DNA of 64,000 nucleotides, taken from an uncultured Gammaproteobacteria bacterium. GTDB taxonomy: Bacteria; Pseudomonadota; Gammaproteobacteria; Ga0077536. Position numbers and translations under genes: made by a program. The DNA lies in the NCBI GenBank assembly GCA_964642505.1, contig CAZXQY010000003.1:324-64323 (forward strand), given 5' to 3'. The notes below the pieces were generated by a model. The model was not told the origin of the DNA, searched no databases, and worked only from the letters and a program-made list of their open reading frames with translations. Positions 6,335 through 61,116 of the stretch are shown piece by piece (position 1 is the stretch's first letter; the number at the start of each line of letters is the position of its first letter).

Positions 6335-7579
6335 TCATTTAGTAAATTCAGGATAAGCCTCTAATCCACAATCCGTAACATCCAACCCATCACTTTCTTC
6401 TTCTTCAGTTACACGAATGCCAATAGTCGACTTTATCGCAGTCCAAAGTATTAAGGAGGTAATGAAAACCCACCCGAATATTACTACGATACCCAATATC
6501 TGGGAGCCCATGCTAGCTTCGCTGTTGCTCAGACAAACGGCCAGCAATCCCCAAATTCCAGCAGTACCGTGAACCGATATCGCGCCTACGGGATCGTCGA
6601 TTTTTCTCTTATCTAAAAATAGAATAGACAAAACAACTAAAATACCACCTATCCCTCCTATTATCGTAGCCAAAAGCGGCGTGGGGGTTAACGGTTCTGC
6701 CGTAATAGAGACCAACCCGGCTAGGGCACCATTTAGAGCCATGGTTAAATCCGCCTTTTTGAACATAAATTGCGACGTAATCAACGCCAAAATGCAACCT
6801 CCCGCAGCAGCAGCGTTTGTATTTACAAAAATTAATGCGACAGCATTAGATTTTGCCACATCCGAAACAACTAGTTCCGACCCACCATTAAAACCGAACC
6901 ACCCAAACCAAAGCAGGAAGGTTCCTAATGTTGCGAGCGGCAAATTGGCTCCAGGAATTGCGTTGACCTGTCCGGCGGGTCCATATTTTCCTTTCCGAGC
7001 ACCCAGCAGCATGACGCCTGCCAAGGCCGCCGTCGCTCCGGCCATATGTACTACTCCCGAACCCGCAAAATCCAAGAAACCTTTTTCGTCAAGGAAACCT
7101 CCACCCCACTTCCAGTAGCCCTCGATCGGATAAATGAAACCAGCCATAAAAACCGCGAACAGTAGAAAAGACCATAATTTCATTCGCTCAGCTACTGCGC
7201 CCGAGACAATCGACATCGCTGCAGCCACAAATACCGCTTGGAAAAAGAAATCGGACAGATTCGAATAATAAATCTGACCTTCACTGGCAATCACAGCGGC
7301 TGCCTCATTGTCTGTACCACCTAAAGTAGAGGGAAGCCCTGGCACCAGGGAGTTTATCGCTTCGGGAGGGTACATTAAGGAATACCCGCATAGGAGATAC
7401 ATTGTACAAGCCACCGAATATAGTACGATGTTCTTTGTCAAGATTTCGGCGGTATTTTTAGATCGTACCAGGCCAGCTTCGAGCATTGCAAAGCCACAGG
7501 CCATCAACATCACAAATGCTCCCATAACCAAGAAATAAAAAGTATCGAGCGCATATTTTAACTCTACGACGGATTCCAC
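6335..7579 (-). CDS. Ammonium transporter (second copy, no obvious signal peptide)
   Basis: Amt family protein of 414 aa (DFAGSGVVHMAG, GARKGKYG), directly downstream of a second PII gene. Confidence 0.9.
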   Translation of the reverse strand: MESVVELKYALDTFYFLVMGAFVMLMACGFAMLEAGLVRSKNTAEILTKNIVLYSVACTMYLLCGYSLMYPPEAINSLVPGLPSTLGGTDNEAAAVIASEGQIYYSNLSDFFFQAVFVAAAMSIVSGAVAERMKLWSFLLFAVFMAGFIYPIEGYWKWGGGFLDEKGFLDFAGSGVVHMAGATAALAGVMLLGARKGKYGPAGQVNAIPGANLPLATLGTFLLWFGWFGFNGGSELVVSDVAKSNAVALIFVNTNAAAAGGCILALITSQFMFKKADLTMALNGALAGLVSITAEPLTPTPLLATIIGGIGGILVVLSILFLDKRKIDDPVGAISVHGTAGIWGLLAVCLSNSEASMGSQILGIVVIFGWVFITSLILWTAIKSTIGIRVTEEEESDGLDVTDCGLEAYPEFTK

Positions 7580-25991: not shown

Positions 25992-26762
25992 TTGAAACAT
26001 TACAAGACAATTATTTTCGATTTGTTTAATACAGTCGTTCTTTGGGAACCAAGAAAAATCCCTACCTTTATATACGAAGATAGAAAATTTCGCTCCACCA
26101 ATATGGCTACTTATCAGACCTTAGGAAAGTATAGGGAATTAGTTTCTTTTCCTGAATATCACCGAGCTTGCCAAACAGTAACGGCCCAATTAACAGAAAA
26201 GAAAAAACAGAGTACCAGGGAAATCTCTTCCTTGGACCGATTCAGTTCCATTTTAAAGTCTCTAGATTTTATAGATGCTGAGACGGCAAACGTTTTAGCG
26301 AAGAAAATTGTCTCGACCCACATGGGAATCTTAACTGCCGCTACTTTCATTCCGAAGGCACACATCTTTGAATTAAGGCAACTGCATCTCGAATACCAAA
26401 TCGGCCTGCTATCAAATTTTGATGACAGCCAAACTGTTAAACGGATTTTAGAAAGTGCTGAAATCGACCAATTTTTCGAATCTACCGTAGTTTCTGAAAA
26501 AATTGGTGTGCGAAAGCCTTCTCAGAAAATATTTGCGATTTCTCTTTCTGAACTTAACGCTGACCCGGAGGAGACGTTATTCGTTGGTGATTCCTGGGAA
26601 GAAGATATTGTGGGGGCAATGGATATCGGGATGGACGCCATATGGATAAATGCGGATCGACATAAAATACCTACCCCAAAGGGATCTCTCTGTACTGAAT
26701 CTAGCGTTAGATGTTTACCCTCTATAACAGAACTTTCACATTTCCTACAAAATTTGGCATAG
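25992..26762 (+). CDS. HAD-family hydrolase
   Basis: FDLFNT motif I and GDSWEEDIVGA motif IV. Confidence 0.65.
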   Translation: MKHYKTIIFDLFNTVVLWEPRKIPTFIYEDRKFRSTNMATYQTLGKYRELVSFPEYHRACQTVTAQLTEKKKQSTREISSLDRFSSILKSLDFIDAETANVLAKKIVSTHMGILTAATFIPKAHIFELRQLHLEYQIGLLSNFDDSQTVKRILESAEIDQFFESTVVSEKIGVRKPSQKIFAISLSELNADPEETLFVGDSWEEDIVGAMDIGMDAIWINADRHKIPTPKGSLCTESSVRCLPSITELSHFLQNLA

Positions 26763-28595
26763 ACCTGGATTTAAAACTACTATCAACGCAACCGAAAAAA
26801 TTAAGACTGCAAAAGAAGCAGACCCCAAGAAAATATCCTTGAGAGATAAGTCTTCAGTACTTAATGAAGCTTTTATCGTAAAAACACTTAGACCCAATGG
26901 TGGGGTCAGCAGTCCCACTTCGACTCCTAAAAGGGAAACTATCCCAAACCAGATAAGATCGCCGTTTAAATCAATAATCGTAGGCATGGCGAAGGGCACC
27001 AGTATTAGCAATATAGAAGTGGAATCAATTAGCATTCCTATTAAAACTAGGCAAAAAAGATAAATCAAAGTGAATTCAGTAAGTGTTAATTCGGCTGTGG
27101 TGACGAATTCACCGATTAGGTCTGGAATTCCAGATAACGTTAGCATCATGCCAAACATAGAAGCTCCTAGTATCAAGAACAGAATATTCGCAGAGGTTTC
27201 CGTCGCTGAGAAAAAAGAGTTTTTGAGAACCCGTAGATTAGAACCTCGAACCAGAATAGAAAAAATTATAGCAAACGCCGCTCCAACCGCACCGGCTTCG
27301 GTAGGTGTAAATATACCACTATAGATACCTCCTAAAACAGCTACTAATATTAGCAAAATCAAATAGAAACCTGTGAAAGTTCTCTGATCCGGTTTATCTA
27401 TTAAGAAGTTCTCGGCTTTAGTTCTCCCGATGTTTAAATAAGATAAAATTAAGACCTTGAATACAAGAAGAAATACCAAGATTAAACCCGGAATAATAGC
27501 CGCCAAAAAAAGACGATTGATCGAAACTTCGGCTATCACTCCATAAACAATTAATAAGATACTAGGAGGAATCAGCATTCCCAAAACTGAAGAACCAGCA
27601 ATCAGGCCAACGGAAAACCGAGGGGTATAACCTTCTTCTATCAAGTAAGGATACGCAATCTTACTGAAAATCGCAGCTGAAGCAATCGATACTCCAGTTA
27701 TCGCCGCGAAAAGAGCGTTGGCAAGTACGGTAGCAATCCCCAACCCTCCCCATAACTTAGCGGTCATCCAACGCACAACTCGCAAACCGTCTCTACCAAT
27801 ATCGGCCTCACTAACAACAAGCCCCAACAAAATAAACATAGGAACTGCTGAAAAAACGTAGCTTGAGACAGCCCCTCCGGAGACCATAGCTAACGTATCA
27901 CTAGCTACAACGAAACTTTCCCGCAGCAATCCTATTCCAAGCAATGAGGACATGATAAGCGAGAAGGCCATTGGAATCCCAAGACCCACAAGTACTAAAA
28001 GTAAAGAAATGGCGGCGAAGCCTAAACTAACATTTTCTTCGAATATTGAAACAACCGGAAAGAGTAGCGAGAAAAACAAAAGTGCGAAGAATAATAGAAG
28101 ACCTCTGTTGGTAGCTCTGCCCCACCAAATAAATAGACGTTCAATCGCCACACCAACAAATATACCGCTTCCTAAAACTATCCCTAATTTGCACGGCCAG
28201 ATCATCAGAATAAAGTCTCCTGGGACGCCAAGAAACTCCTGATTTGAAAAAGATCTCCAAAAACTACGAACGTTAGCCATTAACAGGGTCGTGCCCAATA
28301 CTAGAGACACCGCCAACAAAAAAACTTCCGCAAATCGATTAAAATAATGCCCTTTTCTCCCAACAGCATTAGAAAGTAAATCCGCAGAAATCAGATATCC
28401 CTTTGAAAAAATAAAAGGTAACCCTAAGAAAACAAACGCCGGTAAAATCAAGGAAATCAATTCGATTATGCCCAATACGGGTCGTCCCAAAATATTACGG
28501 CCGACAACATCAATATTAATAATAACGAAAAGGACGCCAATTAGAAAAGCCGAGACGGTAAATAAGATGTTAGAAACTTGGCTTGGTTTTTTCAT
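26745..28595 (-). CDS. TRAP transporter fused small/large permease (DctQM)
   Basis: 616-aa polytopic protein with an N-terminal DctQ-like module fused to a DctM module. Confidence 0.8.
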   Translation of the reverse strand: MKKPSQVSNILFTVSAFLIGVLFVIINIDVVGRNILGRPVLGIIELISLILPAFVFLGLPFIFSKGYLISADLLSNAVGRKGHYFNRFAEVFLLAVSLVLGTTLLMANVRSFWRSFSNQEFLGVPGDFILMIWPCKLGIVLGSGIFVGVAIERLFIWWGRATNRGLLLFFALLFFSLLFPVVSIFEENVSLGFAAISLLLVLVGLGIPMAFSLIMSSLLGIGLLRESFVVASDTLAMVSGGAVSSYVFSAVPMFILLGLVVSEADIGRDGLRVVRWMTAKLWGGLGIATVLANALFAAITGVSIASAAIFSKIAYPYLIEEGYTPRFSVGLIAGSSVLGMLIPPSILLIVYGVIAEVSINRLFLAAIIPGLILVFLLVFKVLILSYLNIGRTKAENFLIDKPDQRTFTGFYLILLILVAVLGGIYSGIFTPTEAGAVGAAFAIIFSILVRGSNLRVLKNSFFSATETSANILFLILGASMFGMMLTLSGIPDLIGEFVTTAELTLTEFTLIYLFCLVLIGMLIDSTSILLILVPFAMPTIIDLNGDLIWFGIVSLLGVEVGLLTPPLGLSVFTIKASLSTEDLSLKDIFLGSASFAVLIFSVALIVVLNPGLCQIL

Positions 28596-28627
28596 TTTAA
28601 AGATAAGATCTAGTTCTCAGTAACTCG

Positions 28628-29722
28628 TCACTTCACTTCCGAATCCCATGCTCTCATAGGTTCAATACCCTTAGCCCTTAATCCATTCATAAGACTTACG
28701 ACTACCCGTTTCGCCGGCAGTCCTTTTTCTTCGTTGCGCCTCACCCAATTCTCTCCAAGGGGCGGAAGAGAATTAATCCAAACATCTTTTTCTATCGCGC
28801 TCAATTTTGAAACGATAACACCTTCGCTAATCAGGGCACGGAGCGCTTGTTCAGATTTTTGTAGAGCTAACTCAGCACTTCGTCTCGAATATTCTCTAGC
28901 CAGTTCTTGAAAAAGCGCTCGCCAAGCCATTGGCATTGAATTCCATTTATCTAAATTAACGACTAAACCGCCGACACTCTGAGCTCCTACTCCTACAAGC
29001 GTTAAATAAGGAGCAACTTCGTGCAATCGAAAAGGATAGGCTCCCGTCAAGATAGTTAAGGCACCATCCGCCACACCTGTTTTGATCTGAGTATAATAAG
29101 TTGTTAGAGCACCGTTGACAGCAACGGCTCCAGAACCTTTTAACCAAATCCTCGCTGCCCCCGGCGCGAGAATCTTTTTGTCACGAAGATCGCCAAAACT
29201 CTTCACAGGAAATTTCGTTAAAAGATGATAAGTATCAACACCTGTCGCTCCTAGAAATTTCACGTTACACTTTTCCCAACCCTGTTTCATTTCAGGAATC
29301 TCATCGTGCAACTCATTTACTACTTCCAGTAGAGCGACTAAATCATCTGTTATAAAAGGTAGGCTATAAGTCATATTGGACAATGGCAACCTGGAGGACT
29401 CCCACACGGACCCGACCCAACCAACATCGGAAAGCCCGATCTCTACGCCTGCTAGACTATCATGCCATCTGTAAAGGGTGCCCCAAGCTCTAGTCCATCT
29501 TAAATTAGTACTTGGCTCAAGCTCATAAACTCTTCTGTTGAAACTCGGAATAAATTCGTCCCGCAGCAAGTATACCCAAGGTAACGTCGGCGGATGGGCG
29601 GTAGCGATCACCAGCTCAACATCTTTTGCCGCGGATACGGTAGCTACAAACAGCCCTGTGACGAACAGAACGATCACCTGTACTCGCTTTTTTTTAACCA
29701 AAAGCAGCGAGGCCATACCCAT
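28628..29722 (-). CDS. TRAP transporter substrate-binding protein (DctP-type)
   Basis: Signal peptide plus a periplasmic binding-protein fold. Located directly upstream of the fused TRAP permease. Confidence 0.7.
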   Translation of the reverse strand: MGMASLLLVKKKRVQVIVLFVTGLFVATVSAAKDVELVIATAHPPTLPWVYLLRDEFIPSFNRRVYELEPSTNLRWTRAWGTLYRWHDSLAGVEIGLSDVGWVGSVWESSRLPLSNMTYSLPFITDDLVALLEVVNELHDEIPEMKQGWEKCNVKFLGATGVDTYHLLTKFPVKSFGDLRDKKILAPGAARIWLKGSGAVAVNGALTTYYTQIKTGVADGALTILTGAYPFRLHEVAPYLTLVGVGAQSVGGLVVNLDKWNSMPMAWRALFQELAREYSRRSAELALQKSEQALRALISEGVIVSKLSAIEKDVWINSLPPLGENWVRRNEEKGLPAKRVVVSLMNGLRAKGIEPMRAWDSEVK

Positions 29723-33292: not shown

Positions 33293-34255
33293 ATGCGAAT
33301 CATGATTTTCGCAACCTTTATTCTTACAGCCTTCATTACGGGAAAGGCGGACGCCGGCGATATCTATCGTATTTTGAGTAGCTGGCACTCAGAAACAAAA
33401 GAAAGTCAACCACTAGCTCTGTTTCAAAAATCCATGATAAAAGGATTCCCCGACGATCTATTTTTAACATTTGAACCCAATACTGTCCCAACTAATCGTC
33501 AATTTCATGCCGTAGCTCTAGGAATTTTCGACCTCCTTTTTACCCAGGCAAGCTATCATTCCGATTCGGTCCCGGCTAGCCTTCTGTTAGAAACTTTTTC
33601 GGTGTCACCTAACGTACTGCGTCAAACCGGTTTTTGGCAATCTTTAGATAACTATTACCATAAACACGGACTTAAACTGCTCTCCGTTATCAACACTGGC
33701 AATGGTTACCACCTGCTACTACGAGAGACACCAAAATCCTGCAATCTAGAAAGCAATAGAATTTCTGTCGCAAGTCCCTTTAAACAATTCGTTGTTTCTA
33801 TGGACGGCCTGCCAGTAGCACAAACTATACCGAGCAGAGAAAATACTTTTAAAGGACCTGATATCGACGGTGTTTTAGTTCCAATCAAAGATCACTCGAC
33901 TTCATATTGGTCAAAGAGCACGAGATTTCGAACGCAATCTGCATTTGGATCTGTAACATATTTAATCCTGATCAACCTTGATCGGTGGAAAGACATATCA
34001 ACCAACAATCAAGAAAAAATCCTGACCATTGGCGCCTCCTTAGAAACTCAAGTTTACGACACCCGAAAAAAGAGACTTGGGGTTTATGAAGCAGATTTCC
34101 AAAAAAAGAATATAGTACCTATCGATTTCTGTGCCACCGATCCTAACTCCCTACAGAAAACCTTTACTAGAACCATCCTTCAAATATCATCCATCCAAGA
34201 ACCCGGACTAACGGATAAATTCAGACAACTAATTCGATCAATTTCGAATCAATAG
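33293..34255 (+). CDS. Secreted hypothetical protein
   Basis: Signal peptide MRIMIFATFILTAFITGKADA. No recognisable family by eye. Confidence 0.45.
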   Translation: MRIMIFATFILTAFITGKADAGDIYRILSSWHSETKESQPLALFQKSMIKGFPDDLFLTFEPNTVPTNRQFHAVALGIFDLLFTQASYHSDSVPASLLLETFSVSPNVLRQTGFWQSLDNYYHKHGLKLLSVINTGNGYHLLLRETPKSCNLESNRISVASPFKQFVVSMDGLPVAQTIPSRENTFKGPDIDGVLVPIKDHSTSYWSKSTRFRTQSAFGSVTYLILINLDRWKDISTNNQEKILTIGASLETQVYDTRKKRLGVYEADFQKKNIVPIDFCATDPNSLQKTFTRTILQISSIQEPGLTDKFRQLIRSISNQ

Positions 34256-34290: not shown

Positions 34291-35598
34291 TTAAGATTGC
34301 GATCCGACGATTTCTTCTTTCAGCAAGATGGCCTCACCAACCTGCTCTGCTGTCCCCTCTTCTAAAATTTCCTCTAGAATGAACCTTGCACTAGGATAGT
34401 ACCCTAACTCGATATATGCTTTTGCCAAGTTTAATTTAACATCGTTCTCTCCACCCTCTGCACTAACAGTCTTTATGACGCTAGATACATTTTCCTCGGT
34501 ATCGCCCTCTTGCCTTTCGTCCTCCTCAATTGAAACAATTGATCCAGCAGCGACTCTAGATTCACTCTCCCAACTTGAATCTTCGGAAGGATCTACATCT
34601 TCATCCTCAGAAAGCCCTTCATTTTGGTCCTTCTCAATTTGTGCGATTTTATCTAAATCTTGACCATGCAATGAGAAACCGTCGTAATTCTTCCCGTCCC
34701 AATTCGTATCCCATCCGACTTCGGCGACCACTTTTGGAGGGCTTTCCACTTCCTCAGGAGGCTGTTGTGACATTTCACCTTTCCTACTGATGTCCGCCAG
34801 TGGTGAATCCACATCGACACTACCTTTAGAGTCTTCCAATCTTTCTACCGACTCAGAAAGCCCTTTGTTCGTTTCTAGCTGGCCAGTGCCCCAAACTCGC
34901 ATCCCGCCCAAGGAGTCGTCTATTTTTCGCTGAATTTCTCGCAGGAAGGACGTCCTTATTTGTCTAAGTTCGTTGGAAGGCCTTCTCGTTAACATAAAAG
35001 CTATCTCTCGAGCCCTGTTAAGCAGATCCTTTCTTCGCATTATCTCTGCCACGATACCACTCTTTCTAGCCTCCTTTACAGACATCGACTTCCCGGTCAA
35101 CAGAAAGTAACGTGCTCGATTCAGACCTAACAAACTACGGAGAGCCAGTCGTCTGACTTCCCTGTCAGCGACAGATTGTGCTAGATTAGACTGCGTTTCC
35201 TGGAATTCCACATTCTCTGACGCGAGGACAACGTCGGAAAACAAAGGGATTTCACAATATTGCCTGACTGGCCCATTTATTGCAGCTATCACCGGGACAG
35301 GTATTTTCATTAAGATTTCCAAAAGGCTGGTTTCTTGCCAGTCTTCCACAGGATAAACTGACCTGGACTCTTCCTCATCAGCTCTCCAAAAGTGGTCGCC
35401 GAATCCAGTTAGAATAACGATTTTATTATCAGGATCTTTCGCTATCTCTCTGAAAACGCTAGCAACTTGCGGCCGTATCTTTGGTGCCCAAATCAGAGTT
35501 TGATCTAATCCAAAAGTGAGTTCTAAAATCCCCCCGTGCCTTTCAAGTTTTATATCTTGATAACTATGGAAATACGTTTCAAAATTACTAACGGTCAT
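34291..35598 (-). CDS. Fusion protein: enoyl-CoA hydratase/isomerase (crotonase) fold, long acidic Ser/Glu/Asp-rich linker, then a FimV-type C-terminal domain
   Basis: Crotonase motifs (VILTGFGDHFWRADEEE; PVIAAINGPV...SENVEFQETQ). The linker covers about residues 250-390. The C-terminal VKLNLAKAYIELGYYPSARFILEEILEEGTAEQVGEAIL matches the conserved FimV C-terminal module. Start at an ATG or at a TTG 12 nt upstream. Confidence 0.65.
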   Translation of the reverse strand: MTVSNFETYFHSYQDIKLERHGGILELTFGLDQTLIWAPKIRPQVASVFREIAKDPDNKIVILTGFGDHFWRADEEESRSVYPVEDWQETSLLEILMKIPVPVIAAINGPVRQYCEIPLFSDVVLASENVEFQETQSNLAQSVADREVRRLALRSLLGLNRARYFLLTGKSMSVKEARKSGIVAEIMRRKDLLNRAREIAFMLTRRPSNELRQIRTSFLREIQRKIDDSLGGMRVWGTGQLETNKGLSESVERLEDSKGSVDVDSPLADISRKGEMSQQPPEEVESPPKVVAEVGWDTNWDGKNYDGFSLHGQDLDKIAQIEKDQNEGLSEDEDVDPSEDSSWESESRVAAGSIVSIEEDERQEGDTEENVSSVIKTVSAEGGENDVKLNLAKAYIELGYYPSARFILEEILEEGTAEQVGEAILLKEEIVGSQS

Positions 35599-35801
35599 AG
35601 AATACCCCAAAAATCTTCCTCAAATGATTACGAAGTGAGTGCACTTGTAAAAATTGTAGCATCGTACTCAGACAATTTTACAAGAATTTTGCTATAAAAA
35701 GCAGAAATTTGTCTCGGAAACAATTTTGATCCACATCTTCAATTAAATAAAAGGGAACGCTAAAATAGTTCTTGCTAACTTCTTATTTTTAGGAACAACC
35801 T

Positions 35802-36600: not shown

Positions 36601-37224
36601 ATGATTCAAGCGATTGGAGCCGGCGTGGGCAGGACTGGAACTAGGTCTCTTCAAAGTGCTCTACAATACTTGTTGAATGGCGACTGTTACCACATGTTTG
36701 AAGTCGGAAAACGACCGAAGGACATACCGATTTGGAAGGACGCAGCGAAAGGACGAATGCCAGATTGGAAGGTTTTCTTATCTGAGTGGTCTGCCGTCGT
36801 GGACTGGCCAGCAGCCGCCTACTGGGAAGAGATTTCCGATTCATTTCCCAATGCTGTAATAATCCTATCTCTTCGGGATCCCGAGGATTGGTGGCAAAGC
36901 GCTTCCAGCACAATATTCCAAGCCCTTAGAGAAGCTGAACCGAGTAACTGGCGAGATATGGTTCTAGAAACTTTTGAAAATAGATTTACCGCTGATATAA
37001 ACGATAAAGCCGGATGTATCTCCGAGTATAAAAAACACAACCTTAACGTGAAAAAGAAGGCGGATCCTAAGCGCTTATTGGAGTGGCACCCTGCGGAAGG
37101 GTGGCCCTCGATTTGCCGAGCTCTCAAACTACCTATTCCGCAACGACCTTTTCCTCATTTAAACGATAAGAATTGTTTCACGAAACGAATTCTACGTAAG
37201 GATCGAAATAAAAAAGAAGATTAG
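36601..37224 (+). CDS. Sulfotransferase-family protein
   Basis: N-terminal GVGRTGTRS 5'-PSB-loop-like motif and an RDPEDWWQS region (3'-PB-like). Confidence 0.55.
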   Translation: MIQAIGAGVGRTGTRSLQSALQYLLNGDCYHMFEVGKRPKDIPIWKDAAKGRMPDWKVFLSEWSAVVDWPAAAYWEEISDSFPNAVIILSLRDPEDWWQSASSTIFQALREAEPSNWRDMVLETFENRFTADINDKAGCISEYKKHNLNVKKKADPKRLLEWHPAEGWPSICRALKLPIPQRPFPHLNDKNCFTKRILRKDRNKKED

Positions 37225-43476: not shown

Positions 43477-43893
43477 TCAGGTACTTTCCTTGACGGCAGG
43501 CGCTAATTCCTCAGTTACATTACCTTTATCTACTTGCTTATGTTCAAGTTCACCTTCGAACACTGCCCCCGGTTCTAACTTAAGAAGCGAGTACGCAAGC
43601 CTACCTTTTACGCTAGCAGTGCTGCCTATTTCTAGCTGATGGAGCGCTAGTATGTCTCCCTCAACGGTGCCATAGATTAGAACATAATCGCCCTTTACTT
43701 GCCCCTTTACACTGCCCGTCTCTCCGATCTCAACAACAGCCTTTCCCGTAGCAATAATATCCCCTTCTACTTGTCCCGCAACGAAAACATTATTATCACA
43801 CCTCAGATTGCCTTGGAAAATCGTCCCAAACCCCACTATCGATGTGTCTTTTGATAACTTTTTGAGAGTATTTTTGTAGCGATTTAGAATCAT
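43477..43893 (-). CDS. Bactofilin (DUF583) cytoskeletal protein
   Basis: Repetitive β-helical G/V-rich core (VFVAGQVEGDIIATGKAVVEIGETGSVKGQVKGD...). Confidence 0.8.
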   Translation of the reverse strand: MILNRYKNTLKKLSKDTSIVGFGTIFQGNLRCDNNVFVAGQVEGDIIATGKAVVEIGETGSVKGQVKGDYVLIYGTVEGDILALHQLEIGSTASVKGRLAYSLLKLEPGAVFEGELEHKQVDKGNVTEELAPAVKEST

Positions 43894-43907
43894 TTCACCC
43901 CCCACTC

Positions 43908-44816
43908 TTAAATTTGCCGTAGACTACTTGGTCTAATCGAGGTAAGGCCATCGTCATTAATTATTTTGACCACCCATCCACCAAATTCTTTTGTCGTCTG
44001 CATTAATTTAACGACATTATGGTCACTTATCCCGTAACTAAAAGTACTTCTAAAGACCTTTGAATAAAATATAGGTTGCCCTAAGTAACAGGGAAACTCT
44101 TTAAGAGTTCGGTATATTTGTAAGATTTCGCTCCTGTCATCCAATAAATTAGGGATCACCACCACTGTTGGCAGAAATTCAATCTTTCCACCACTGTTTA
44201 TTTGCGGATTTGGATCAAATAACCTCGATAGAAATTTTTTAGTCGCCGTCAAATCAGCATCCGACGCAGACGTTGGAACGAAGAGATAATTAGCATCTAA
44301 CATGAAAGAATACTCAGCAGGAGTGGTACCAGCCGGAGTATCAAAGAAAACGAAACGACGTTCGCTTTCAGAGGACCGCACATAATCAGTCCTCAAATGT
44401 TGGTAAATTCTAGCATTATTTGGTCCACCCGAAGCCAGTATAAATTCGGGATCCGACACCAAACTAAACTTAGCGTTAACAAATCTGTGCAAAGACTCGC
44501 TAGTTGTAGCCTGTCTATCTAGATCAATAAATTCTATCCGGGAATCAGGTTCTTCGATCGCAAGATTTAGACATGTCATGAACGCAACGGTACTCTTCCC
44601 AACTCCTCCCTTGGAATTAGCAAAAACCACCGAGGTCGCGCCTTTTAACTCATGGCGCCGAAGCTCCTCGCTCCCAACAGAGCCTTGTTCTTCACCGCTT
44701 CCAGATCCGCCACCCGGCTGAACTGGAATCTCGGATACCTCCCTGGTAGCCAGAGAATCAGCGCCGCCCTTACTCTCATTTTGCCGCCCTAACTGTTTAA
44801 GAAATCTATCTAGCAC
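43908..44816 (-). CDS. ParA/MinD-family P-loop ATPase with a Gly/Ser-rich N-terminal extension
   Basis: Deviant Walker A NSKGGVGKST, IDLDRQ, and Walker B VFFDTPAG. Confidence 0.8.
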   Translation of the reverse strand: MLDRFLKQLGRQNESKGGADSLATREVSEIPVQPGGGSGSGEEQGSVGSEELRRHELKGATSVVFANSKGGVGKSTVAFMTCLNLAIEEPDSRIEFIDLDRQATTSESLHRFVNAKFSLVSDPEFILASGGPNNARIYQHLRTDYVRSSESERRFVFFDTPAGTTPAEYSFMLDANYLFVPTSASDADLTATKKFLSRLFDPNPQINSGGKIEFLPTVVVIPNLLDDRSEILQIYRTLKEFPCYLGQPIFYSKVFRSTFSYGISDHNVVKLMQTTKEFGGWVVKIINDDGLTSIRPSSLRQI

Positions 44817-44851
44817 AGCTTTGAACCGGATATTCTGGCGCAGTAATGTCC

Positions 44852-45289
44852 CTATTTGTCACCGTCTGCAGGTTTAGGAGGGCCGCCAGTAGGTTTCATA
44901 TCTACCTTCTGAGCCAGGCGGTTGAGTCTGTCCTCGGAGCTCGCAGCTGATGGAGCATCCCAATCAGTGGATATTTCCCCAACAAGCTTGGCCCCTTCAT
45001 GTGCCTCTATCGAGCCATATGATATTTTTCCTCTAATTTTACCTGTAGACGCAACCGTCAGTTTGCCGGACAGATTTAGACTTTCGTCCACTACGCCCTC
45101 AATCCAAGCAGTCTCACCAGATATATCGCCCGAAACATTACCGCTCTTTCCAACAATGAGGTGCTTTACCTGCACTTTCCCGACCAGACGACCGTCTATC
45201 CTCGCAGTACCTTGTATCGCTAAGGAAGCACCTTCTAATTCCGTCGACTCCCCAACGAAAAACTCATAGTTTTTTTGCTCATCTTTCAT
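44852..45289 (-). CDS. Bactofilin (DUF583) cytoskeletal protein
   Basis: β-helical repeat core (IDGRLVGKVQVKHLIVGKSGNVSGDISGE...) and a Pro-rich C-terminal tail. Confidence 0.8.
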   Translation of the reverse strand: MKDEQKNYEFFVGESTELEGASLAIQGTARIDGRLVGKVQVKHLIVGKSGNVSGDISGETAWIEGVVDESLNLSGKLTVASTGKIRGKISYGSIEAHEGAKLVGEISTDWDAPSAASSEDRLNRLAQKVDMKPTGGPPKPADGDK

Positions 45290-49880: not shown

Positions 49881-52800
49881 TTACCAGACATCAGGATACC
49901 TGGACAGTCGTCTCTTTTTACGTGAGAGTTTGCTCGACCACAAACCCATCAAAAGCCAATCACCCGTATCTCTACGATCAATCACGGCGTCAACATCAAA
50001 GGCGGAGGCGACCGAAACACCCTTCCCCTTCGCATACATGCTTTCAAGTAGACTATCAAAAATCGATTTTCTTTCCCTTTCATTCATCGCACCATCTAGC
50101 TCCTTGCGAAAACCCAATTCCACCGCACCTTCTAAACCCATCGGGCCCATTTCTGAAGTAGGCCACCCTATCGTAAAAAAAGGCTGATGGAAACTACCAC
50201 CTGCCATAGCTTGTGCACCTAGACCATAGCCTTTACGCAAAACAATTGTAAAAAGAGGAACGGATAAATTGGCACTAGCCGTTATCAACCGGGAGCCTCT
50301 ACGCACGGAAGCCGTCTCCTCGCTGGCAGGGCCTACCATGAAGCCTGGAGTATCACATAACGAGATAACCGGCAGGCCAAAGCAATCGCATAATTGAAGA
50401 AACCTCGCCCCCTTCTCTCCCCCTTCGCCGTCGATGGCGCCTCCAAGGTGGGTAGGGTCATTCGCAATCAGCCCAAAAGAATGACCCTCTATTCGCAGTA
50501 GGATAGTAAGCAAACCGATTCCATAATCTCTTCGTAACTCAATAACCGAGCCCTCGTCGGCCAAATTTCTTATTAGCTTTCTGATGTCATATACCCGTAA
50601 TCGGTCCTCAGGGATTATGTGCCTGAGGATTCTTTGATCCGAAAAATCATAATGCTCTAATTTCCCTTGAAAATATCCGAGTATTTTTTTGGCCTTATCG
50701 GTAGCATCTGATTCATCTTTGCATAGCAAGTCGATAACACCATTCTTACTTTGCGTGTCGGACGGTCCGATATCTTCGGATTTGAATTTCCCCAACCCCC
50801 CGCTTTTATCTATCATCGCAGGTCCGGCCAGACCAATATTGGAGTTTTTAGTCGCTATCGTGATATCCGCACACCCGAAAATAACAGCGTTACCAGCGAA
50901 GCACCTACCTGAATTGATCGCTATCCTAGGCGCAATCCCCCCAAGTTGAGGCCAAGTGGCGAACGTCTTTATATCCAACCAACTCATGATTAGATCGTCA
51001 GTATCCACGTCACCGGGTCGACCTCCTCCTCCTTCCGTAAAAAAGACCACAGGAGTCTCCCAGTCACGCGCTAATTCGAAAATTCTATCCTTTTTTTTGT
51101 GGCTATTATGCCCCTGCGTACCGGCCAATACTGTGTAGTCATACGCCAACACGGCACACTTGGCCCTGTCCTCACCAAAATGTGTACTGTTCACGGTTCC
51201 AAAGCCAGCTACCAAGCCATCAGCAGGCGTCGCGATCTGCAGTTCGTCTACACTCCTTCTACGTCTTTGAGCTGCTATCGCCAAAGCTCCGTATTCCAAG
51301 AAACTATCCTCGTCACATAAGTCGTCGACATTCTCGCGCGCAGTCCTCGATCCGATTTTCCTTCGCTTAGCAACCGCCTCACCTCTCTGCTCGTCCATAA
51401 CCAAAGAGTGGCGAAAAATAACTTCCTTCAAATCAGCGCGAATATCGTCCAGATCGATTTTATCGTCACTGTGTATACTTTCGTTCATCCGGCTATCGAC
51501 TGCTAACTCGATGACTGGTTGACCTGTATCTATTACCTCACCCTCGTGTACCTTTATCCGCTTGATTAACCCGGACGCAGGCGCTTTTATTTCGTGATGC
51601 ATTTTCATCGCCTCGACAATTAAAAGCGTCTGTCCTTCCGAAACCACTTGATCTTCTTCTGATGGAATCTTTACTACGTTCCCCCTCAGCTGAGCTTCTA
51701 TCGTAACTAGCCCTGAGCCAGCGATTTTTGAATTTCTAACATCCGACCCGATTCTCTCTTGCTCGCTACCCTTCTTCCGTGAATCTTTTACAATTTCGTC
51801 TATATAAGAGGTCGTGAACTCCGCATTTACCACACCTTGCCGCTTCATAAGCTCCATTAGAAAATCAATATTTGTGTCTACTCCACGGACTTCGAATTCG
51901 GACAGCGCTCTAATGCCTTTACGGAGTAAAGACGACAAATCGCTTTCCAAGTTATGGACGATTAACTTGGCTAAAAGGGAATCAAATTCCCCACTTACTT
52001 CAAAACCCTCACGAACACCTGGGTCTACTCTGATTCCGATACCAAGCGGCGCTCGAAATTTAGACACCACCCCGGTCGACGGAAGAAAACTTCCTGCGGA
52101 ACTAAGTTTTTCCGCATTTATACGCATTTGGACGGCGCTGCCCGCAGGTTTGTCGCGCTTAGTTATCAGAACATCATCTAGCTTTTCACCTAATGCCAAT
52201 TGCAACTGAACTCGCGCCAAATCTATGCCATAAAGCATCTCCGTAATGGTATGTTCGACCTGCAATCTGGCATTTACTTCGATAAAATAGAATCTGCCTG
52301 ATCTTGGATCTACCATGAATTCCACCGTCCCGACACCCCTATATCCAACCGATCGTGCAAGACTCAAAGCGCCATCGAAAAGCTGACTTCTCATCTCTTC
52401 AGGTAGAGAAGGAGCCGGAGCTAACTCGACAATTTTTTGACGATTCCGTTGCAAACTACAGTCTCGCTCGCCTAAATGTTCCACTTGACCATTCCCGTCG
52501 CCTACCACTTGAACCTCAATGTGACGGGCACCTTCAAAAAACTCCTCGATATAAACGTCTCCTGAGCCAAAAGCATGTTTAGCTTCTTCACAAGCCAATA
52601 AAAACGCGGCTTCCAAATCGGTTTCGGCATCGATCACTCGAATACCTCTGCCTCCTCCTCCAGCAACCGCCTTGAGCACAAAAGATTTATTGGAGGGACA
52701 CTTCCGAATATAACTTTCCAAATCACCGGGATTTCGGAGCACGGCTGAACCATCTAATATTGGAAGCCCAACCTTCACGGCCTGAGATCGAGCCGATAAC

Positions 52801-53150
52801 TTATTTCCGAACAGCCTGAGCTGAGAAACGGTCGGGCCCACCCATGTGATACCAGCGTTCTCCATTTGCTCGGCAAAATCGGCACTCTCTGACAAAAATC
52901 CATAACCGGGATGAATAAGATTACAATCGAATTTCTGCGCCGCAGAAAGTATCGCTGACGTATTTAAATAGGCTGCCGCTCCTTGGCCAGAAATTTCCAC
53001 TGAATTTCCCTGCGAGAAAAGCACATGGGATGCAAACCTGTCCGACTCACAATGTACCGCAATAGCTTTCAGATTCAGATCATGTGCCGACTGCAAAACT
53101 CGCAACGCAATTTCGCCTCTATTAGCTACTAGGACCCGAGCATCAGACAT
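49881..53150 (-). CDS. Single-chain multi-domain biotin-dependent carboxylase (biotin carboxylase, then biotinyl/BCCP domain, then carboxyltransferase)
   Basis: N-terminal ATP-grasp BC domain (VLVANRGEIA...), a central biotinylation motif (LLIVEAMKMHHEIKAPASG), and a C-terminal crotonase-superfamily CT domain (acyl-CoA carboxylase β-like). Total length 1096 aa. Confidence 0.85.
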   Translation of the reverse strand: MSDARVLVANRGEIALRVLQSAHDLNLKAIAVHCESDRFASHVLFSQGNSVEISGQGAAAYLNTSAILSAAQKFDCNLIHPGYGFLSESADFAEQMENAGITWVGPTVSQLRLFGNKLSARSQAVKVGLPILDGSAVLRNPGDLESYIRKCPSNKSFVLKAVAGGGGRGIRVIDAETDLEAAFLLACEEAKHAFGSGDVYIEEFFEGARHIEVQVVGDGNGQVEHLGERDCSLQRNRQKIVELAPAPSLPEEMRSQLFDGALSLARSVGYRGVGTVEFMVDPRSGRFYFIEVNARLQVEHTITEMLYGIDLARVQLQLALGEKLDDVLITKRDKPAGSAVQMRINAEKLSSAGSFLPSTGVVSKFRAPLGIGIRVDPGVREGFEVSGEFDSLLAKLIVHNLESDLSSLLRKGIRALSEFEVRGVDTNIDFLMELMKRQGVVNAEFTTSYIDEIVKDSRKKGSEQERIGSDVRNSKIAGSGLVTIEAQLRGNVVKIPSEEDQVVSEGQTLLIVEAMKMHHEIKAPASGLIKRIKVHEGEVIDTGQPVIELAVDSRMNESIHSDDKIDLDDIRADLKEVIFRHSLVMDEQRGEAVAKRRKIGSRTARENVDDLCDEDSFLEYGALAIAAQRRRRSVDELQIATPADGLVAGFGTVNSTHFGEDRAKCAVLAYDYTVLAGTQGHNSHKKKDRIFELARDWETPVVFFTEGGGGRPGDVDTDDLIMSWLDIKTFATWPQLGGIAPRIAINSGRCFAGNAVIFGCADITIATKNSNIGLAGPAMIDKSGGLGKFKSEDIGPSDTQSKNGVIDLLCKDESDATDKAKKILGYFQGKLEHYDFSDQRILRHIIPEDRLRVYDIRKLIRNLADEGSVIELRRDYGIGLLTILLRIEGHSFGLIANDPTHLGGAIDGEGGEKGARFLQLCDCFGLPVISLCDTPGFMVGPASEETASVRRGSRLITASANLSVPLFTIVLRKGYGLGAQAMAGGSFHQPFFTIGWPTSEMGPMGLEGAVELGFRKELDGAMNERERKSIFDSLLESMYAKGKGVSVASAFDVDAVIDRRDTGDWLLMGLWSSKLSRKKRRLSRYPDVW

Positions 53151-53259
53151 ACAATCTTCCTTTAATATCAAGTGGTATAGACTAAGCTAGCTTATCTTCA
53201 CTCGACTTTCAAAATTTCGGGTTATTATAGCCGCCCTCATAACGGACTTAATAATGCGG

Positions 53260-57410: not shown

Positions 57411-59300
57411 TTGAAAGAAAATTTGCCATCGCTTCAGTTATTTAATATCTTATTGGACAAAATCACCGAGCGCCATCCCCGTTGTGTAGGAAATGGAGGG
57501 CGCCAGCAAAGGACACCGCAAGGGGGACTGTCGAGCGTGAAGCCGACAAATGTACGTGATCCAGATTACTTCCACAAGGTAGTAGATTGCCAGTGGGCTT
57601 GCCCTGCTCATACTCCCGTGCCGGAATATATCCGTCTGATCGCTGAAGAACGGTACGCAGACGCTTATATGGTTAACTGGGAATCGAATGTTTTCCCAGG
57701 AATACTTGGTAGGACTTGCGACAGACCCTGTGAGCCCGCCTGCCGGCGAGGGAGAGTTGAAGAAAAACCCGTAGCAATATGCAGACTGAAAAGGGTCGCT
57801 GCGGATTTCAAAGGGGATATTTCAGAGCGACTTCCTAGAGAGCCGAATACAAAAAACAATCATAAAATAGCTTGTGTGGGCGGCGGCCCCGCCTCACTCA
57901 CCGTCGCTCGAGACCTCTCTAGAATAGGTTATAGAGTTACAATCCTCGACTCTGAAAGGCAACTGGGAGGTATGATAAGAAGCCAGATTCCCAAGTTCCG
58001 TCTGCCGGAAGAAATTATAGACGAAGAGATAAACTACGTCTTGAAACTGGGTATAAATTTCGAAAGCCGTTGGGTGGAATCTCTGCAGCACTTGCTGGAA
58101 GAAGATTATGACGCGATTTTCGTGGGTACAGGCGCTCCACGTGGTAAAGACCTTGAGATACCTGGACATGTGGAGGCCGCGGACAATATACATATAGGCA
58201 TTGACTGGTTATCTTCTGTCGCGTTTGGTCATATCTCTCGGATTGGAAAAAGAGTCATCGTTCTCGGTGGCGGCAACACGGCTATGGACTGTTGCCGCTC
58301 CTCAATGCGCTTAGGGGGGGAATCCGTAACGGTAGTTGTTAGATCAGGTTTTGAAGAAATGAAAGCCTCCGAGTGGGAGAAAGAAGATGCCATGCATGAG
58401 GGAATCCCGATTCGGAACTACCTAGTTCCTAAAGCCTTCTTAATCGACCAGGGCACTCTCTCTGGCATGCAATTTGAGAAAGTTAGAGCCGAGTATATCG
58501 GCAAAAAAAGAAAGCTTATACCCACTGGAGAACCAGACGAAATCATTGCGTGCGATGACGTGTTAATTGCCATCGGTCAGGAAAATGCTTTCCCTTGGAT
58601 AGAGAGAGATATTGGAATCGAATTCGACGATTGGGGACTACCAAAACTGGACCCGAACTCTCTACAATCCACTCGTCCAGAAATCTTCTTCGGTGGAGAT
58701 GCCGCGTTCGGCCCCGAGAATATAATTTGGGCTGTAGCTCATGGACATGAGGCGGCTATTTCTATCGATAAATTTCTGACTAATAAGTCAGTTAAGAAAC
58801 GTCCAAAACCAAATGTTCAGATAGAACCCCAGAAAATGGGAATTCATGAATGGAGCTATGATAACGACATTTCCAGTGGTCCGAGACAAAAAGTGCCCCT
58901 GGAGCGACTAAAAAAAGCTCTCTCAAACATAAAAGTCGAAGTGGAAAAAGGTTTTCCCACTTCGACTGCGTGGACAGAAGCGCAAAGATGCTTAAATTGC
59001 GATGTGCAAACCGTTTTCTCTGACAATCTTTGTATAGAATGTGATGCTTGTACAGATATTTGCCCTACCGATTGTATCAACTTCACTGATAACGCTGCAG
59101 AAAATAATCTCCGGAAACAGTTGCGAGCACCTGCCGATGACTTAGATCAAGATCTATATGTATCAGGTAAACTTCCAACCGGATTAGTAATGGTGAAAGA
59201 CGAAAACGTTTGCCTCCATTGTGGCCTATGCGCCGAACGATGCCCCACGGGAGCTTGGGATATGAAAAAATATCTGATCAACATCGAACAGGTGCGCTAA
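57411..59300 (+). CDS. GltD/SudA-family FAD/NAD(P)H oxidoreductase fused to a C-terminal 2x[4Fe-4S] ferredoxin domain (candidate electron-transfer partner of KorAB)
   Basis: N-terminal Cys cluster like the glutamate synthase small subunit (NVFPGILGRTCDRPCEPAC), a dinucleotide fold (KIACVGGGPASL), a second GGGNTAMD motif, and two CxxCxxCxxxCP ferredoxin motifs at the C-terminus. TTG start. Confidence 0.75.
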   Translation: MKENLPSLQLFNILLDKITERHPRCVGNGGRQQRTPQGGLSSVKPTNVRDPDYFHKVVDCQWACPAHTPVPEYIRLIAEERYADAYMVNWESNVFPGILGRTCDRPCEPACRRGRVEEKPVAICRLKRVAADFKGDISERLPREPNTKNNHKIACVGGGPASLTVARDLSRIGYRVTILDSERQLGGMIRSQIPKFRLPEEIIDEEINYVLKLGINFESRWVESLQHLLEEDYDAIFVGTGAPRGKDLEIPGHVEAADNIHIGIDWLSSVAFGHISRIGKRVIVLGGGNTAMDCCRSSMRLGGESVTVVVRSGFEEMKASEWEKEDAMHEGIPIRNYLVPKAFLIDQGTLSGMQFEKVRAEYIGKKRKLIPTGEPDEIIACDDVLIAIGQENAFPWIERDIGIEFDDWGLPKLDPNSLQSTRPEIFFGGDAAFGPENIIWAVAHGHEAAISIDKFLTNKSVKKRPKPNVQIEPQKMGIHEWSYDNDISSGPRQKVPLERLKKALSNIKVEVEKGFPTSTAWTEAQRCLNCDVQTVFSDNLCIECDACTDICPTDCINFTDNAAENNLRKQLRAPADDLDQDLYVSGKLPTGLVMVKDENVCLHCGLCAERCPTGAWDMKKYLINIEQVR

Positions 59301-59310
59301 TTAAATAATA

Positions 59311-61116
59311 ATGGGACTAATTAACGATTTCGTCATAAAGTTCGCAAACGTCAACGGCTCGGGCTCGGCTTCTGCCAACACTTTGTTTACCAAAGCGATA
59401 CTCAGAATGGGAATCCCGGCCACACCGCGAAATATCTTCCCCTCAAACATACAAGGGTTGCCTACATGGTACGAAGTAAGAGTGTCGGCAGAAGGTTGGC
59501 TAGGAAGGAAAGAAGGAATCGATTTCCTCGTAGCCATGAATCCGGAGACAATAGAACAAGATATCAGTGAATTAAAAGCAGGAGGGAACCTCCTTTACGA
59601 CTCGACTAAATCGTTGCCTGTGAAATACCGTCGGGAGGATATAAACTCATATGGACTACCATTCATGTCTTTATGCAACGAAAAATACGACGATCCTCGT
59701 CAACGCCAGCTTTTCAAAAATATAATGTATATTGGTTCTCTTTCCGCTTTAGTAGGGATGAAAAAGGAAATTCTAGTTCGATTGATTACAGAACTCTATG
59801 GAGATAAAAAACCACTTATAGAATCAAATCTAGAGGCTTTATCGACAGGGTTCGAGGCGGCGGAATCAAATTTCACCACTCCTTCCACAATTTCTATTCC
59901 TGCCGGCAATAAAATTGGAGAGAAAATTTTCATTGAAGGAAATGAGGCCGCGGCGTTAGGCGCCCTATACGCAGGAGCCACGGTAGCCGCTTGGTACCCA
60001 ATCACTCCATCATCCTCTTTGGCCGAAGCATTCGAAAGATACTGTAAAAAATATCGTAAAGATCCCAAAACTAAAAAAGACCGCTATGCAATTCTACAAG
60101 CCGAAGACGAACTCGCTTCCATCGGGATGGTTTTGGGAGCTAGTTGGAATGGGGCAAGAGCTTTTACCTGCACATCTGGGCCTGGCATCTCCTTGATGCA
60201 AGAATTTCTAGGTTTCGGCTATTTCGCTGAAATACCTGCCGTCGTCTTTAACGTGCAACGCGGCGGCCCATCGACAGGCATGCCTACGAGAACGCAGCAA
60301 TCTGATTTATTGTCTTGCGCCTATGCCTCACATGGTGATACAAAGCACGTCATGCTTTTCCCTGAAGATCCAAAAGAATCATTTGATATGAGTGCACTAG
60401 CTTTCGATATCGCCGACCGCCTTCAAACACCGGTATTCGTAATGCTTGATCTTGATATCGGAATGAATGAAAGATTATGCGAACCTTTAGCTTGGCACGA
60501 CAAACGTTGTTACGACCGAGGCAAAGTATTGACCGACGACGCCATCCAAGATTTAGAGACGTTCGGCAGATATCTCGATATAGATAGGGATGGTATCTCC
60601 TATCGAACCTACCCAGGTACACATACCAACCTCGGATCCTATTTTACCAGGGGGACGACAAAGGATCAGTACGCAAACTATAGTGAGTCTCCTCAGGACT
60701 ATACTGAAAACATGGAGAGACTAACTAAGAAACACCAAACCGCGGTACGTTTTGTTCCAACACCTGTGGTGCGGTACCAGCATGGTCAAAGGGAAATCGG
60801 AGCAGTTTATTTTGGCTCTACATCTCCCGCCATGAAAGAAGCATTAGCTTTGCTATCGGCCGAAAACTTTACCCTAAATGATTTGAGAATCAGGTCCTAC
60901 CCTTTTTCACAGGAAATCCAAGAATTCATTGAGAGCCACCGAATTATTTTTATAATAGAGCAAAATAGAGACCATCAAATACGCACGCTGTTGGTCAACG
61001 AATTAAATCTCTCACAGAATAACTTGGTGTCAGTACTACACTACGATGGAACCCCAATCACAGCCCAAATAATAAAAGAAAAAATCATGGCGCACCTAAA
61101 AGAACAAGCAACTTAA
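59311..61116 (+). CDS. korA: 2-oxoacid:ferredoxin oxidoreductase alpha subunit (fused γ/α, KorA)
   Basis: FVIKFANVNGSGSASAN N-terminus (γ-domain) followed by a pyrimidine-binding α-domain. Length 601 aa. Confidence 0.85.
   Translation: MGLINDFVIKFANVNGSGSASANTLFTKAILRMGIPATPRNIFPSNIQGLPTWYEVRVSAEGWLGRKEGIDFLVAMNPETIEQDISELKAGGNLLYDSTKSLPVKYRREDINSYGLPFMSLCNEKYDDPRQRQLFKNIMYIGSLSALVGMKKEILVRLITELYGDKKPLIESNLEALSTGFEAAESNFTTPSTISIPAGNKIGEKIFIEGNEAAALGALYAGATVAAWYPITPSSSLAEAFERYCKKYRKDPKTKKDRYAILQAEDELASIGMVLGASWNGARAFTCTSGPGISLMQEFLGFGYFAEIPAVVFNVQRGGPSTGMPTRTQQSDLLSCAYASHGDTKHVMLFPEDPKESFDMSALAFDIADRLQTPVFVMLDLDIGMNERLCEPLAWHDKRCYDRGKVLTDDAIQDLETFGRYLDIDRDGISYRTYPGTHTNLGSYFTRGTTKDQYANYSESPQDYTENMERLTKKHQTAVRFVPTPVVRYQHGQREIGAVYFGSTSPAMKEALALLSAENFTLNDLRIRSYPFSQEIQEFIESHRIIFIIEQNRDHQIRTLLVNELNLSQNNLVSVLHYDGTPITAQIIKEKIMAHLKEQAT

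Follow-up and report, generated by a model that had tools for sequence, protein, structure and literature searches.

What might be done by a gene that joins an enzyme fold to the tail of a polar landmark protein? The question is raised by one open reading frame (ORF) in a 64,000-nucleotide stretch of contig CAZXQY010000003.1 (positions 324 to 64,323; assembly GCA_964642505.1) from an uncultured gammaproteobacterium. This whole stretch is referred to below as the window, its fusion gene product as the window protein, and that product together with its full-length homologs as the fusion family. An initial annotation had read the gene as an enoyl-CoA hydratase-like enzyme connected by an acidic linker to the C-terminal module of FimV/HubP, and proposed that the module could send an acyl-coenzyme A (CoA) enzyme to the cell pole or to a scaffold, with a non-catalytic crotonase fold as the fallback. 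We find that the protein puts known parts together in a new arrangement and is not a pole-targeted acyl-CoA enzyme. Its three-part architecture is established with near certainty and comprises a crotonase-fold domain, an acidic tether and a FimV C-terminal (FimV_C) module. We read the whole as a soluble protein in which a dead hydrolase, the tether and FimV_C together form an anchor-less multivalent adaptor or hub, a reading to which we give an even chance. The parts lie in the window as follows:

34291..35610, minus strand: whole fusion gene, from a TTG at 35610 or an ATG at 35598 to the stop codon at 34291-34293.
34891..35598, minus strand: crotonase-fold domain of the OCH/ABDH branch, residues 1-236 counted from the ATG (PF00378, PDB matches, AlphaFold2, Foldseek); presumed pseudo-enzyme and oligomer core.
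34489..34890, minus strand: acidic, Ser-rich linker, residues 237-370 (composition, AlphaFold2); predicted disordered.
34621..34677, minus strand: motif FSLHG-x-[DE]-[IL] and a short amphipathic helix, residues 308-326 (alignment of 23 sequences, AlphaFold2).
34294..34488, minus strand: FimV C-terminal module, residues 371-435: three helices after a short lead-in helix (TIGR03504, 4mal, AlphaFold2).

According to the ORF list and a translation check, the frame is uninterrupted and yields 439 amino acids (aa) from the TTG or 435 aa from the ATG, the start chosen in public gene calls (P0001). The start codon is ambiguous. Either is possible, because a Shine-Dalgarno-like GAGGA lies ∼6 nt 5′ of the TTG at 35610 and ∼18 nt 5′ of the ATG at 35598 (35598-35640, minus strand). 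Residues named from the family alignment and from hidden Markov models (HMMs), such as E120, Q140 and W41, are numbered from the TTG; ranges in the structural model and part boundaries are numbered from the ATG and are four lower.

A search of 5.8 billion proteins recovered the full-length fusion architecture in 169 member sequences, which group into 22 clusters at 90% identity, with identities down to 32%. These form three subclades, identity to the window protein being 85-99% in one, about 47% in another and about 33% in the remaining one, and all remaining matches are stand-alone crotonase-fold proteins of ∼255 aa. The fusion is present in 3 of 185,579 species-representative genomes, namely two tropical-ocean single-cell genomes and one metagenome-assembled genome (MAG). 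The UvrA protein encoded in the window shares at most ∼69% identity with named relatives, which come from “Gammaproteobacteria bacterium” MAGs. The survey of other genomes suggested in the initial annotation places the fusion at the same syntenic position in every locus examined, within a region that is collinear over >20 kb. Between genomes the neighboring genes encode proteins that are 50-78% identical and the fusion protein is 32-47% identical; given this lower identity and its constant place in the collinear region, the gene is a vertically inherited, fast-evolving ortholog. The ratio of nonsynonymous to synonymous substitution rates (dN/dS; Nei-Gojobori, orthologous pairs) is 0.14-0.16 for the N-terminal domain, 0.29-0.50 for the linker and 0-0.08 for the FimV_C module. 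All three parts are under purifying selection, and the gene is functional.

These observations bear on the possibility that a separate hydrolase gene and a FimV fragment were fused by sequencing or assembly error. The locus is indeed split into short ORFs in some assemblies (P0241-P0249), but the split versions are limited to error-rich long-read assemblies with fragmented neighbors. By contrast, the single ORF is unbroken in independent assemblies (Tara, ENA, Logan, NCBI, JGI), among these on contigs of 1.90-1.91 Mb, and it is intact in all three subclades despite their divergence. With selection acting on each part, the artifact is effectively refuted and has practically no chance of being right. 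The fusion within one ORF that was initially annotated is therefore real, with PF00378 and TIGR03504 both matched above their cut-offs, and it is not a pair of ORFs separated by a frameshift.

The broken versions themselves come from pilon-polished long-read assemblies (L024 7169-8342, L025 7006-8153), in which frameshifts divide the fusion gene and many of its neighbors. The resulting fragments are the source of spurious FimV-domain “proteins” of 50-113 aa in protein databases. Stand-alone FimV_C mini-proteins of this size, returned by a profile search, were considered as split-gene relatives and rejected, as they are such fragments of the fusion gene.

The N-terminal domain matches Pfam ECH_1 (PF00378) with 67.2 bits (E = 1.9e-18, residues 48-229), well above the cut-off of 27. 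When a 240-aa N-domain query was compared with all PDB sequences, the closest were 6-oxocamphor hydrolase (OCH; 1o8u/1szo, E = 2.6e-38, residues 4-229) and the Anabaena β-diketone hydrolase ABDH (2j5g/2j5s, E = 2.6e-30, residues 5-231), with ordinary enoyl-CoA hydratases reaching only about E = 1e-12. In an AlphaFold2 model built from a 66-sequence alignment, the crotonase core has a predicted local distance difference test score (pLDDT) >90. A Foldseek search with this model returned OCH first (E = 5.5e-20, template-modeling score 0.80-0.82), followed by ABDH and then by CoA-dependent crotonases, with 31-34% identity to OCH and ABDH and a probability of 1.00 to many crotonase structures. The domain is therefore a crotonase-superfamily fold whose nearest relatives are the CoA-independent β-diketone hydrolases OCH and ABDH, and not an acyl-CoA-type crotonase.

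OCH (Rhodococcus) and ABDH (Anabaena, Alr4455) are superfamily members that cleave C-C bonds of β-diketones without CoA; ABDH has been described as a crotonase-superfamily member that does not depend on coenzyme A (PMC3584854). Like them, the fusion family lacks the GGG loop of CoA-type enzymes. The residues that it shares with OCH, ABDH and the stand-alone homologs are mainly core glycines, prolines and hydrophobic positions, with few charged ones, together with W40 and E124 of OCH, which are retained as W41 and E120. Enoyl-CoA hydratases and isomerases such as EchA8 and rat ECHS1 have the same superfamily and fold, and the position of their first catalytic Glu is filled, but the similarity is far weaker. 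In an alignment with Mycobacterium tuberculosis EchA8, the first catalytic Glu, E111, falls on the invariant E120, whereas the second, E131, falls on Q140, a position held by Gln in subclades 1-2 and by Ser in subclade 3. The oxyanion loop “GYALGGGCE” of EchA8 becomes “GPVRQYCE”, so that GGG is replaced by RQY and the loop is one residue shorter, and “FAAGADI”, which carries the F-x-A-G-A-D motif, becomes “FWRADEE” in the window protein. The enoyl-CoA hydratase/isomerase motifs claimed in the initial annotation thus hold at the level of the superfamily profile and fail at the GGG oxyanion loop. Of the two catalytic Glu residues whose conservation it left to be checked, the first stands and the second is gone.

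The catalytic residues of ABDH are H43, H144, D153 and E243 (PMC3584854). They correspond to H45, H145, D154 and E244 of OCH. For OCH residues beyond this list the roles are those reported by Whittingham in 2003 and by Leonard and Grogan in 2004; the latter reportedly assign a catalytic role to H122, with which the title of the 1szo entry agrees. Alignment of OCH, ABDH, 23 fusion N-domains and 98 stand-alone homologs gave the following at these and other positions of OCH:

H122: His in 97/98 stand-alone homologs; Tyr or Phe in 23/23 fusion proteins.
H145: His in 98/98 stand-alone homologs; Ser, Asn, Leu or Phe in 23/23 fusion proteins.
D154: Asp in 97/98 stand-alone homologs; Glu or Ser in 23/23 fusion proteins.
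D142: Asp in 98/98 stand-alone homologs; Glu in 23/23 fusion proteins.
P152: Pro in 98/98 stand-alone homologs; Asp, Ile, Val, Leu or Thr in 23/23 fusion proteins.
H32: His in 96/98 stand-alone homologs; Gly in 23/23 fusion proteins.
E244 equivalent: Glu in 97/98 stand-alone homologs; Trp in fusion subclades 1-2, with the motif absent and the alignment unreliable in subclade 3.
H45: His in 77/98 stand-alone homologs; Arg, Ser, Tyr or Asn in 23/23 fusion proteins.
H157: His in 80/98 stand-alone homologs; Arg in 23/23 fusion proteins.

Unlike OCH and ABDH, therefore, the fusion family has H45, H122, H145, D154 and E244 replaced, together with H32 and D142. The His/Asp dyad (OCH H145/D154; ABDH H144/D153) is missing in 23/23 fusion proteins, and the C-terminal GLxLEG region is remodeled and runs into the long tether and the FimV domain. 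Judged from these substitutions, the ancestral catalysis has quite probably been lost. The domain is best described as a pseudo-enzyme of the β-diketone-hydrolase branch, with a fold that is kept by selection and a known chemistry that appears to be dismantled. None of the 23 family members retains the catalytic residues of this branch, and the evidence favors the fallback of the initial annotation, a non-catalytic crotonase fold.

Could the domain still be an active enzyme with altered chemistry, using for example E120, E138 and R154, and docked to a pole or scaffold hub by its FimV domain? We consider this unlikely, and no more probable in the form in which it works with the neighboring short-chain dehydrogenase/reductase (SDR) and CoA-transferase on a keto-acid or acyl-CoA substrate. 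Purifying selection on the N-domain (dN/dS about 0.15) would suit such an enzyme, as would retention of the substrate-contacting Trp (OCH W40) and of E124, and the invariance of E138 and R154 across the family. The fusion gene also adjoins, and is divergently transcribed from, an SDR and CoA-transferase III (CoA_transf_3) pair in all loci examined, with a SnoaL_4 neighbor conserved as well, and stand-alone homologs lie in catabolic clusters, in one case with an SDR gene directly downstream. Against this, the six residues that are near-invariant in the 98 stand-alone homologs are all replaced, and the substitutes differ in chemistry from one subclade to another, contrary to what a new common catalytic set would show; neither the CoA-type oxyanion loop nor the second catalytic Glu is present. 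We rejected the neighborhood as a functional clue: collinearity extends over >20 kb in all related genomes, and the neighbors are better conserved than the fusion gene, so that the synteny reflects shared ancestry and not a specific operon. A docking role also sits poorly with what is known of the FimV domain, which in FimV/HubP is the client-binding end and not the localization determinant.

The C-terminal module, described for FimV as one tetratricopeptide repeat (TPR) plus a capping helix, is well defined in the window protein. NCBIfam TIGR03504 (FimV_Cterm), which matches over residues 392-429, scores 40.5 bits against the whole protein and 45.4 bits against the isolated C-terminus, in both cases above the cut-off of 30.65. 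The same region matches 4mal, a crystallized C-terminal fragment of P. aeruginosa FimV (E = 6.6e-5), and AlphaFold2 places three helices at residues 384-434 with pLDDT ∼90. Its core, VKLNLAKAYIELG, is near-identical to that of FimV-like proteins, ∼1000 aa long, from other Gammaproteobacteria; over 38-48 aa the identity is 53-66%. A bona fide FimV domain thus makes up the last ∼65 residues, as the initial annotation proposed.

Possession of this domain does not make the protein a FimV/HubP. Of the features by which PMC12918733 defines that family, the acidic region and the FimV domain occur in the window protein, and LysM and the transmembrane segment do not. A Pfam scan at E values up to 10 found neither LysM nor FimV_N in it, the sole matches being ECH_1 and TPR_19. 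A hydropathy scan likewise detected no transmembrane segment: the maximum 19-residue Kyte-Doolittle mean is 1.47 and falls inside a strand of the crotonase core, and the same is true of all 22 homologs. Because LysM, FimV_N and a hydrophobic segment are missing, the window protein is not a FimV/HubP by its sequence. It resembles FimV (Pseudomonas) and HubP (Vibrio, Shewanella) in having a C-terminal FimV domain after an acidic, largely unstructured region, and shares with two true FimVs an upstream [FL]SLHGxE. In contrast to these proteins, it lacks a signal peptide, the FimV_N Ig-like domain, LysM and a transmembrane segment, does not reach half their size, lies at another genomic position, and carries a crotonase-fold domain in place of the anchor.

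Public names for the family nevertheless conflict, being “FimV/HubP family polar landmark protein” in some entries and “enoyl-CoA hydratase-related protein” in others, and neither is correct, which is a clear caution for automated annotation. The former is the NCBI name of the 99%-identical MEC9248147.1, and a genuine polar landmark protein would also agree with the TIGR03504 score and with an acidic region preceding the FimV domain. However, the anchor domains are absent, FimV_C-bearing representatives have a median length of ∼880 aa and an upper quartile of 1102 aa, compared with 435 aa here, and the locus differs from asd-fimV-truA, where real fimV genes were found. We regard membership in FimV/HubP as very improbable, and as effectively refuted by the missing anchor domains.

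The division of labor within FimV/HubP matters for the proposed polar targeting. In these proteins clients such as PdeB in Shewanella and FimL in P. aeruginosa are held to bind mainly through the FimV domain, and septal or polar targeting comes from the LysM region through peptidoglycan binding (PMC12918733; bioRxiv 10.1101/116954). As targeting is assigned to the LysM region and not to the FimV domain, FimV_C alone does not imply polar localization of the window protein. The idea of an acyl-CoA enzyme sent to the pole by its FimV-type tail is not supported on any of these counts: kinship is with OCH and ABDH, the catalytic residues are lost, and in FimV/HubP the FimV domain serves client binding. 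A soluble scaffold or adaptor is more likely than a pole-targeted metabolic enzyme.

How unusual the arrangement is was assessed by an exhaustive HMM search with the C-terminal module of the family against 1.84 billion representative proteins (E ≤ 0.001), which returned 2,439 proteins. Of these, the fusion family makes up three clusters at 50% identity, together with fragments. The top 143 FimV_C matches outside its three intact clusters have a median length of 878 aa and an upper quartile of 1102 aa; many are shorter and seem to be pieces of genes, and those of full length have the size of a FimV/HubP. A Pfam scan of 20 top-scoring or mid-length proteins among the 2,439 detected no other enzyme fused to FimV_C, only TPR matches, and literature searches found no description of a crotonase-FimV_C architecture. 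The top match of the FimV_C search, P0268 (L026 8001-11429), was examined and rejected; it is encoded by a normal fimV gene, which lies at the asd-truA locus, and owes its score to four tandem FimV_C repeats. P0268 and P0270 are canonical FimVs that carry three or four tandem C-terminal FimV domains, with acidic spacers between them, instead of one.

Between the two folded domains lies the acidic linker, which was initially put at roughly 140 aa and indeed measures ∼135-147 aa (147 aa as measured, 134 aa between part boundaries). It contains 26.5% Asp+Glu and 13.6% Ser, with an isoelectric point of 4.05, and is predicted to be disordered by AlphaFold2, with pLDDT <50 at residues 259-311 and 327-369. 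Across the family its length ranges from ∼91 to 148 aa and its acidic fraction from 0.17 to 0.26, and identity between subclades is just 20-40%. Amid this variable sequence, the F, L, H and G of the FSLHG motif are invariant in 23/23 sequences, and the extended form reads FSLHG-x-[DE]-[IL]-x-x-[IL]. A short helix is weakly predicted after it (residues 313-326, pLDDT ∼55).

The same motif occurs in 4 of the 143 FimV_C-bearing representatives outside the three intact clusters. Two are family fragments; the others, P0289 and P0294, are genuine FimVs with FimV_N scores of 125-131 bits, and P0289 also has a weak LysM match and an asd-fimV-truA locus. In both FimVs the motif lies ∼135-140 aa upstream of the FimV domain, a relative position similar to that in the fusion family, and the order of elements is common to all: Φ-SLHG-x-E-Φ, then S-Φ-x-x-Φ-x-K-S-Φ, then FimV_C. 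This shared order of motif, helix pattern and module suggests that the C-terminal ∼130 residues descend from a fimV-type 3′ end. They look like a compacted copy of a real FimV C-terminal end, and the fusion gene probably arose when a fimV 3′ end was joined to a hydrolase gene, an event that would have taken place in one marine gammaproteobacterial lineage.

A role for the combined protein can be proposed from its parts. Proteins with a crotonase fold typically form trimers or hexamers, solved relatives crystallize with 6 or 12 chains per entry, and PDB entries for OCH and ABDH contain 6-13 chains each; for these reasons the dead enzyme is likely to have been kept as an oligomer core. In the model that we favor, the OCH/ABDH-type domain would persist as a stable trimeric or hexameric core, possibly still able to bind a ligand. 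Each tether would present a FimV-type client-binding module and an FSLHG motif, giving three to six modules per oligomer, and the protein may gather, or compete for, clients of the FimV/HubP C-terminal domain instead of performing metabolic catalysis. PopZ offers a parallel, in that a short client-binding helix, an acidic disordered linker (acidic fraction 0.29) and an oligomerization domain together build a polar hub (PMC9512792). The likeness to Caulobacter PopZ is a functional analogy and not homology: in both, an oligomer domain (presumed here) is joined through an acidic disordered linker to a small module of helices that binds clients, but in the fusion protein the modules come in reverse order, the two proteins are not related in sequence, and the core would be a dead enzyme fold. 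We give the scaffold role slightly less than even chances.

However, we note several points that weigh against this model. Oligomerization is deduced from relatives; the scaffold role, the partners and the evolutionary origin are likewise inferred. Pseudo-enzyme calls made from sequence can err when catalytic residues have migrated, and the family-invariant E120, E138, R154 and W41 could form a different active or ligand-binding site. The likeness of the linker to FimVs comes from two related proteins and a short pattern, and in BLAST comparisons homology of the linker to FimV was not significant, only the FimV_C part being so. Finally, the conserved divergent SDR and CoA-transferase III genes could hint at a metabolic link. 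These neighbors, together with the retained W41, E120, E138 and R154, keep alive both the altered enzyme and a further reading, that of a ligand sensor.

A sensor would be a pseudo-enzyme whose pocket binds a cyclic diketone, keto acid or acyl compound and thereby alters exposure of the FSLHG motif or FimV domain, passing a metabolite signal to a hub or partner. The constrained N-domain with its pocket-lining W41 and E120, and the metabolic gene neighborhood, are compatible with this, and the conserved motif and helix in the tether could dock back onto the domain. AlphaFold2, however, gives no confident docking of the motif helix (pLDDT ∼55), and many pocket positions vary between subclades; we consider a sensor rather improbable.

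The adaptor model can be extended toward the spatial organization of the cell, and here a second gene cluster in the window comes into view, ∼8 kb from the fusion gene:

43477..43905, minus strand: bactofilin.
43908..44816, minus strand: ParA/MinD/MipZ-like ATPase (302 aa).
44852..45289, minus strand: bactofilin.

This cluster (43477-45289) is conserved in related loci (L001 2710-4536, L024 1-1697) and looks like a cytoskeletal or positioning module. Since ParA-type ATPases are classic HubP clients, it is conceivable as a candidate partner of the fusion protein. By analogy with PopZ, one may picture a membrane-free organizing hub in which a hexameric dead-hydrolase core with six acidic tethers and FimV domains undergoes PopZ-like self-assembly or phase separation; we give this only a slim chance. 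An equally slim one attaches to the idea that such a hub would position partners such as the bactofilin and ParA/MipZ-like system and would partly or wholly replace membrane-anchored FimV/HubP. The host belongs to a streamlined marine gammaproteobacterial lineage, with genome contigs of ∼1.9 Mb. If true, this would be the first bacterial hub, polar or cytoplasmic, to have recruited an enzyme fold for its oligomerization engine.

Around the fusion gene itself, the 191-bp intergenic region that separates it from the divergent SDR gene contains one candidate regulatory element, taken from a consensus scan alone and weak as evidence at 9/12 matches:

35624..35651, minus strand: sigma-70-like promoter candidate, TTTACA, 16-nt spacer, AATCAT.

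A terminator scan found no intrinsic terminator 3′ of the fusion gene. Convergent with it lies a 320-aa ORF (33293-34255, plus strand) with a signal-peptide-like N terminus (MRIMIFATFILTAFITGKADA) and no Pfam match; it is only 42% identical to its counterpart in L006/L007, so that its rate of evolution equals that of the fusion protein, and the subclade-3 loci searched contain no match to it. Between the SDR and CoA-transferase III genes, a Sulfotransfer_4 gene (36601-37224, plus strand) is present in the window and in L006/L007 and absent at that place in the subclade-3 loci L001, L005 and L008; it is a lineage-specific insertion in the collinear block.

Elsewhere in the window, a 1096-aa protein (49881-53171, minus strand) unites biotin carboxylase, biotinyl carrier and carboxyltransferase in a completely fused enzyme of the acyl-CoA/acetyl-CoA carboxylase type. 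A pair of ammonium-transporter genes (4427-5767 and 6335-7579, minus strand) stands beside a gene for a cyclic-nucleotide-binding and rhodanese protein (3236-4282, minus strand). There are two separate sets of TRAP-type transporter genes (520-2348 and 26745-29722), one with a fused 616-aa DctQ-DctM and an adjoining DctP-type binding protein. At 57411-61116 (plus strand), a 629-aa Pyr_redox_2/Fer4_20/4Fe-4S dicluster protein is followed by a 601-aa pyruvate/2-oxoacid:ferredoxin oxidoreductase-type protein, a pair that has the look of unexpected anaerobic-type chemistry amid an aerobic-heterotroph-like region.

To our knowledge, all work on the FimV domain so far has concerned the tail of large polar landmark proteins that are anchored to peptidoglycan. 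The importance of the present case is limited by the narrow, uncultured marine lineage in which it occurs and by a function that is so far a proposal. Considered together, the data indicate that the client-binding end of FimV/HubP is detachable from its anchor and reusable, here on a soluble, probably oligomeric dead-enzyme core. The fusion protein may thus offer, for the study of hubs, a compact natural oligomer-tether-binder design comparable to PopZ.

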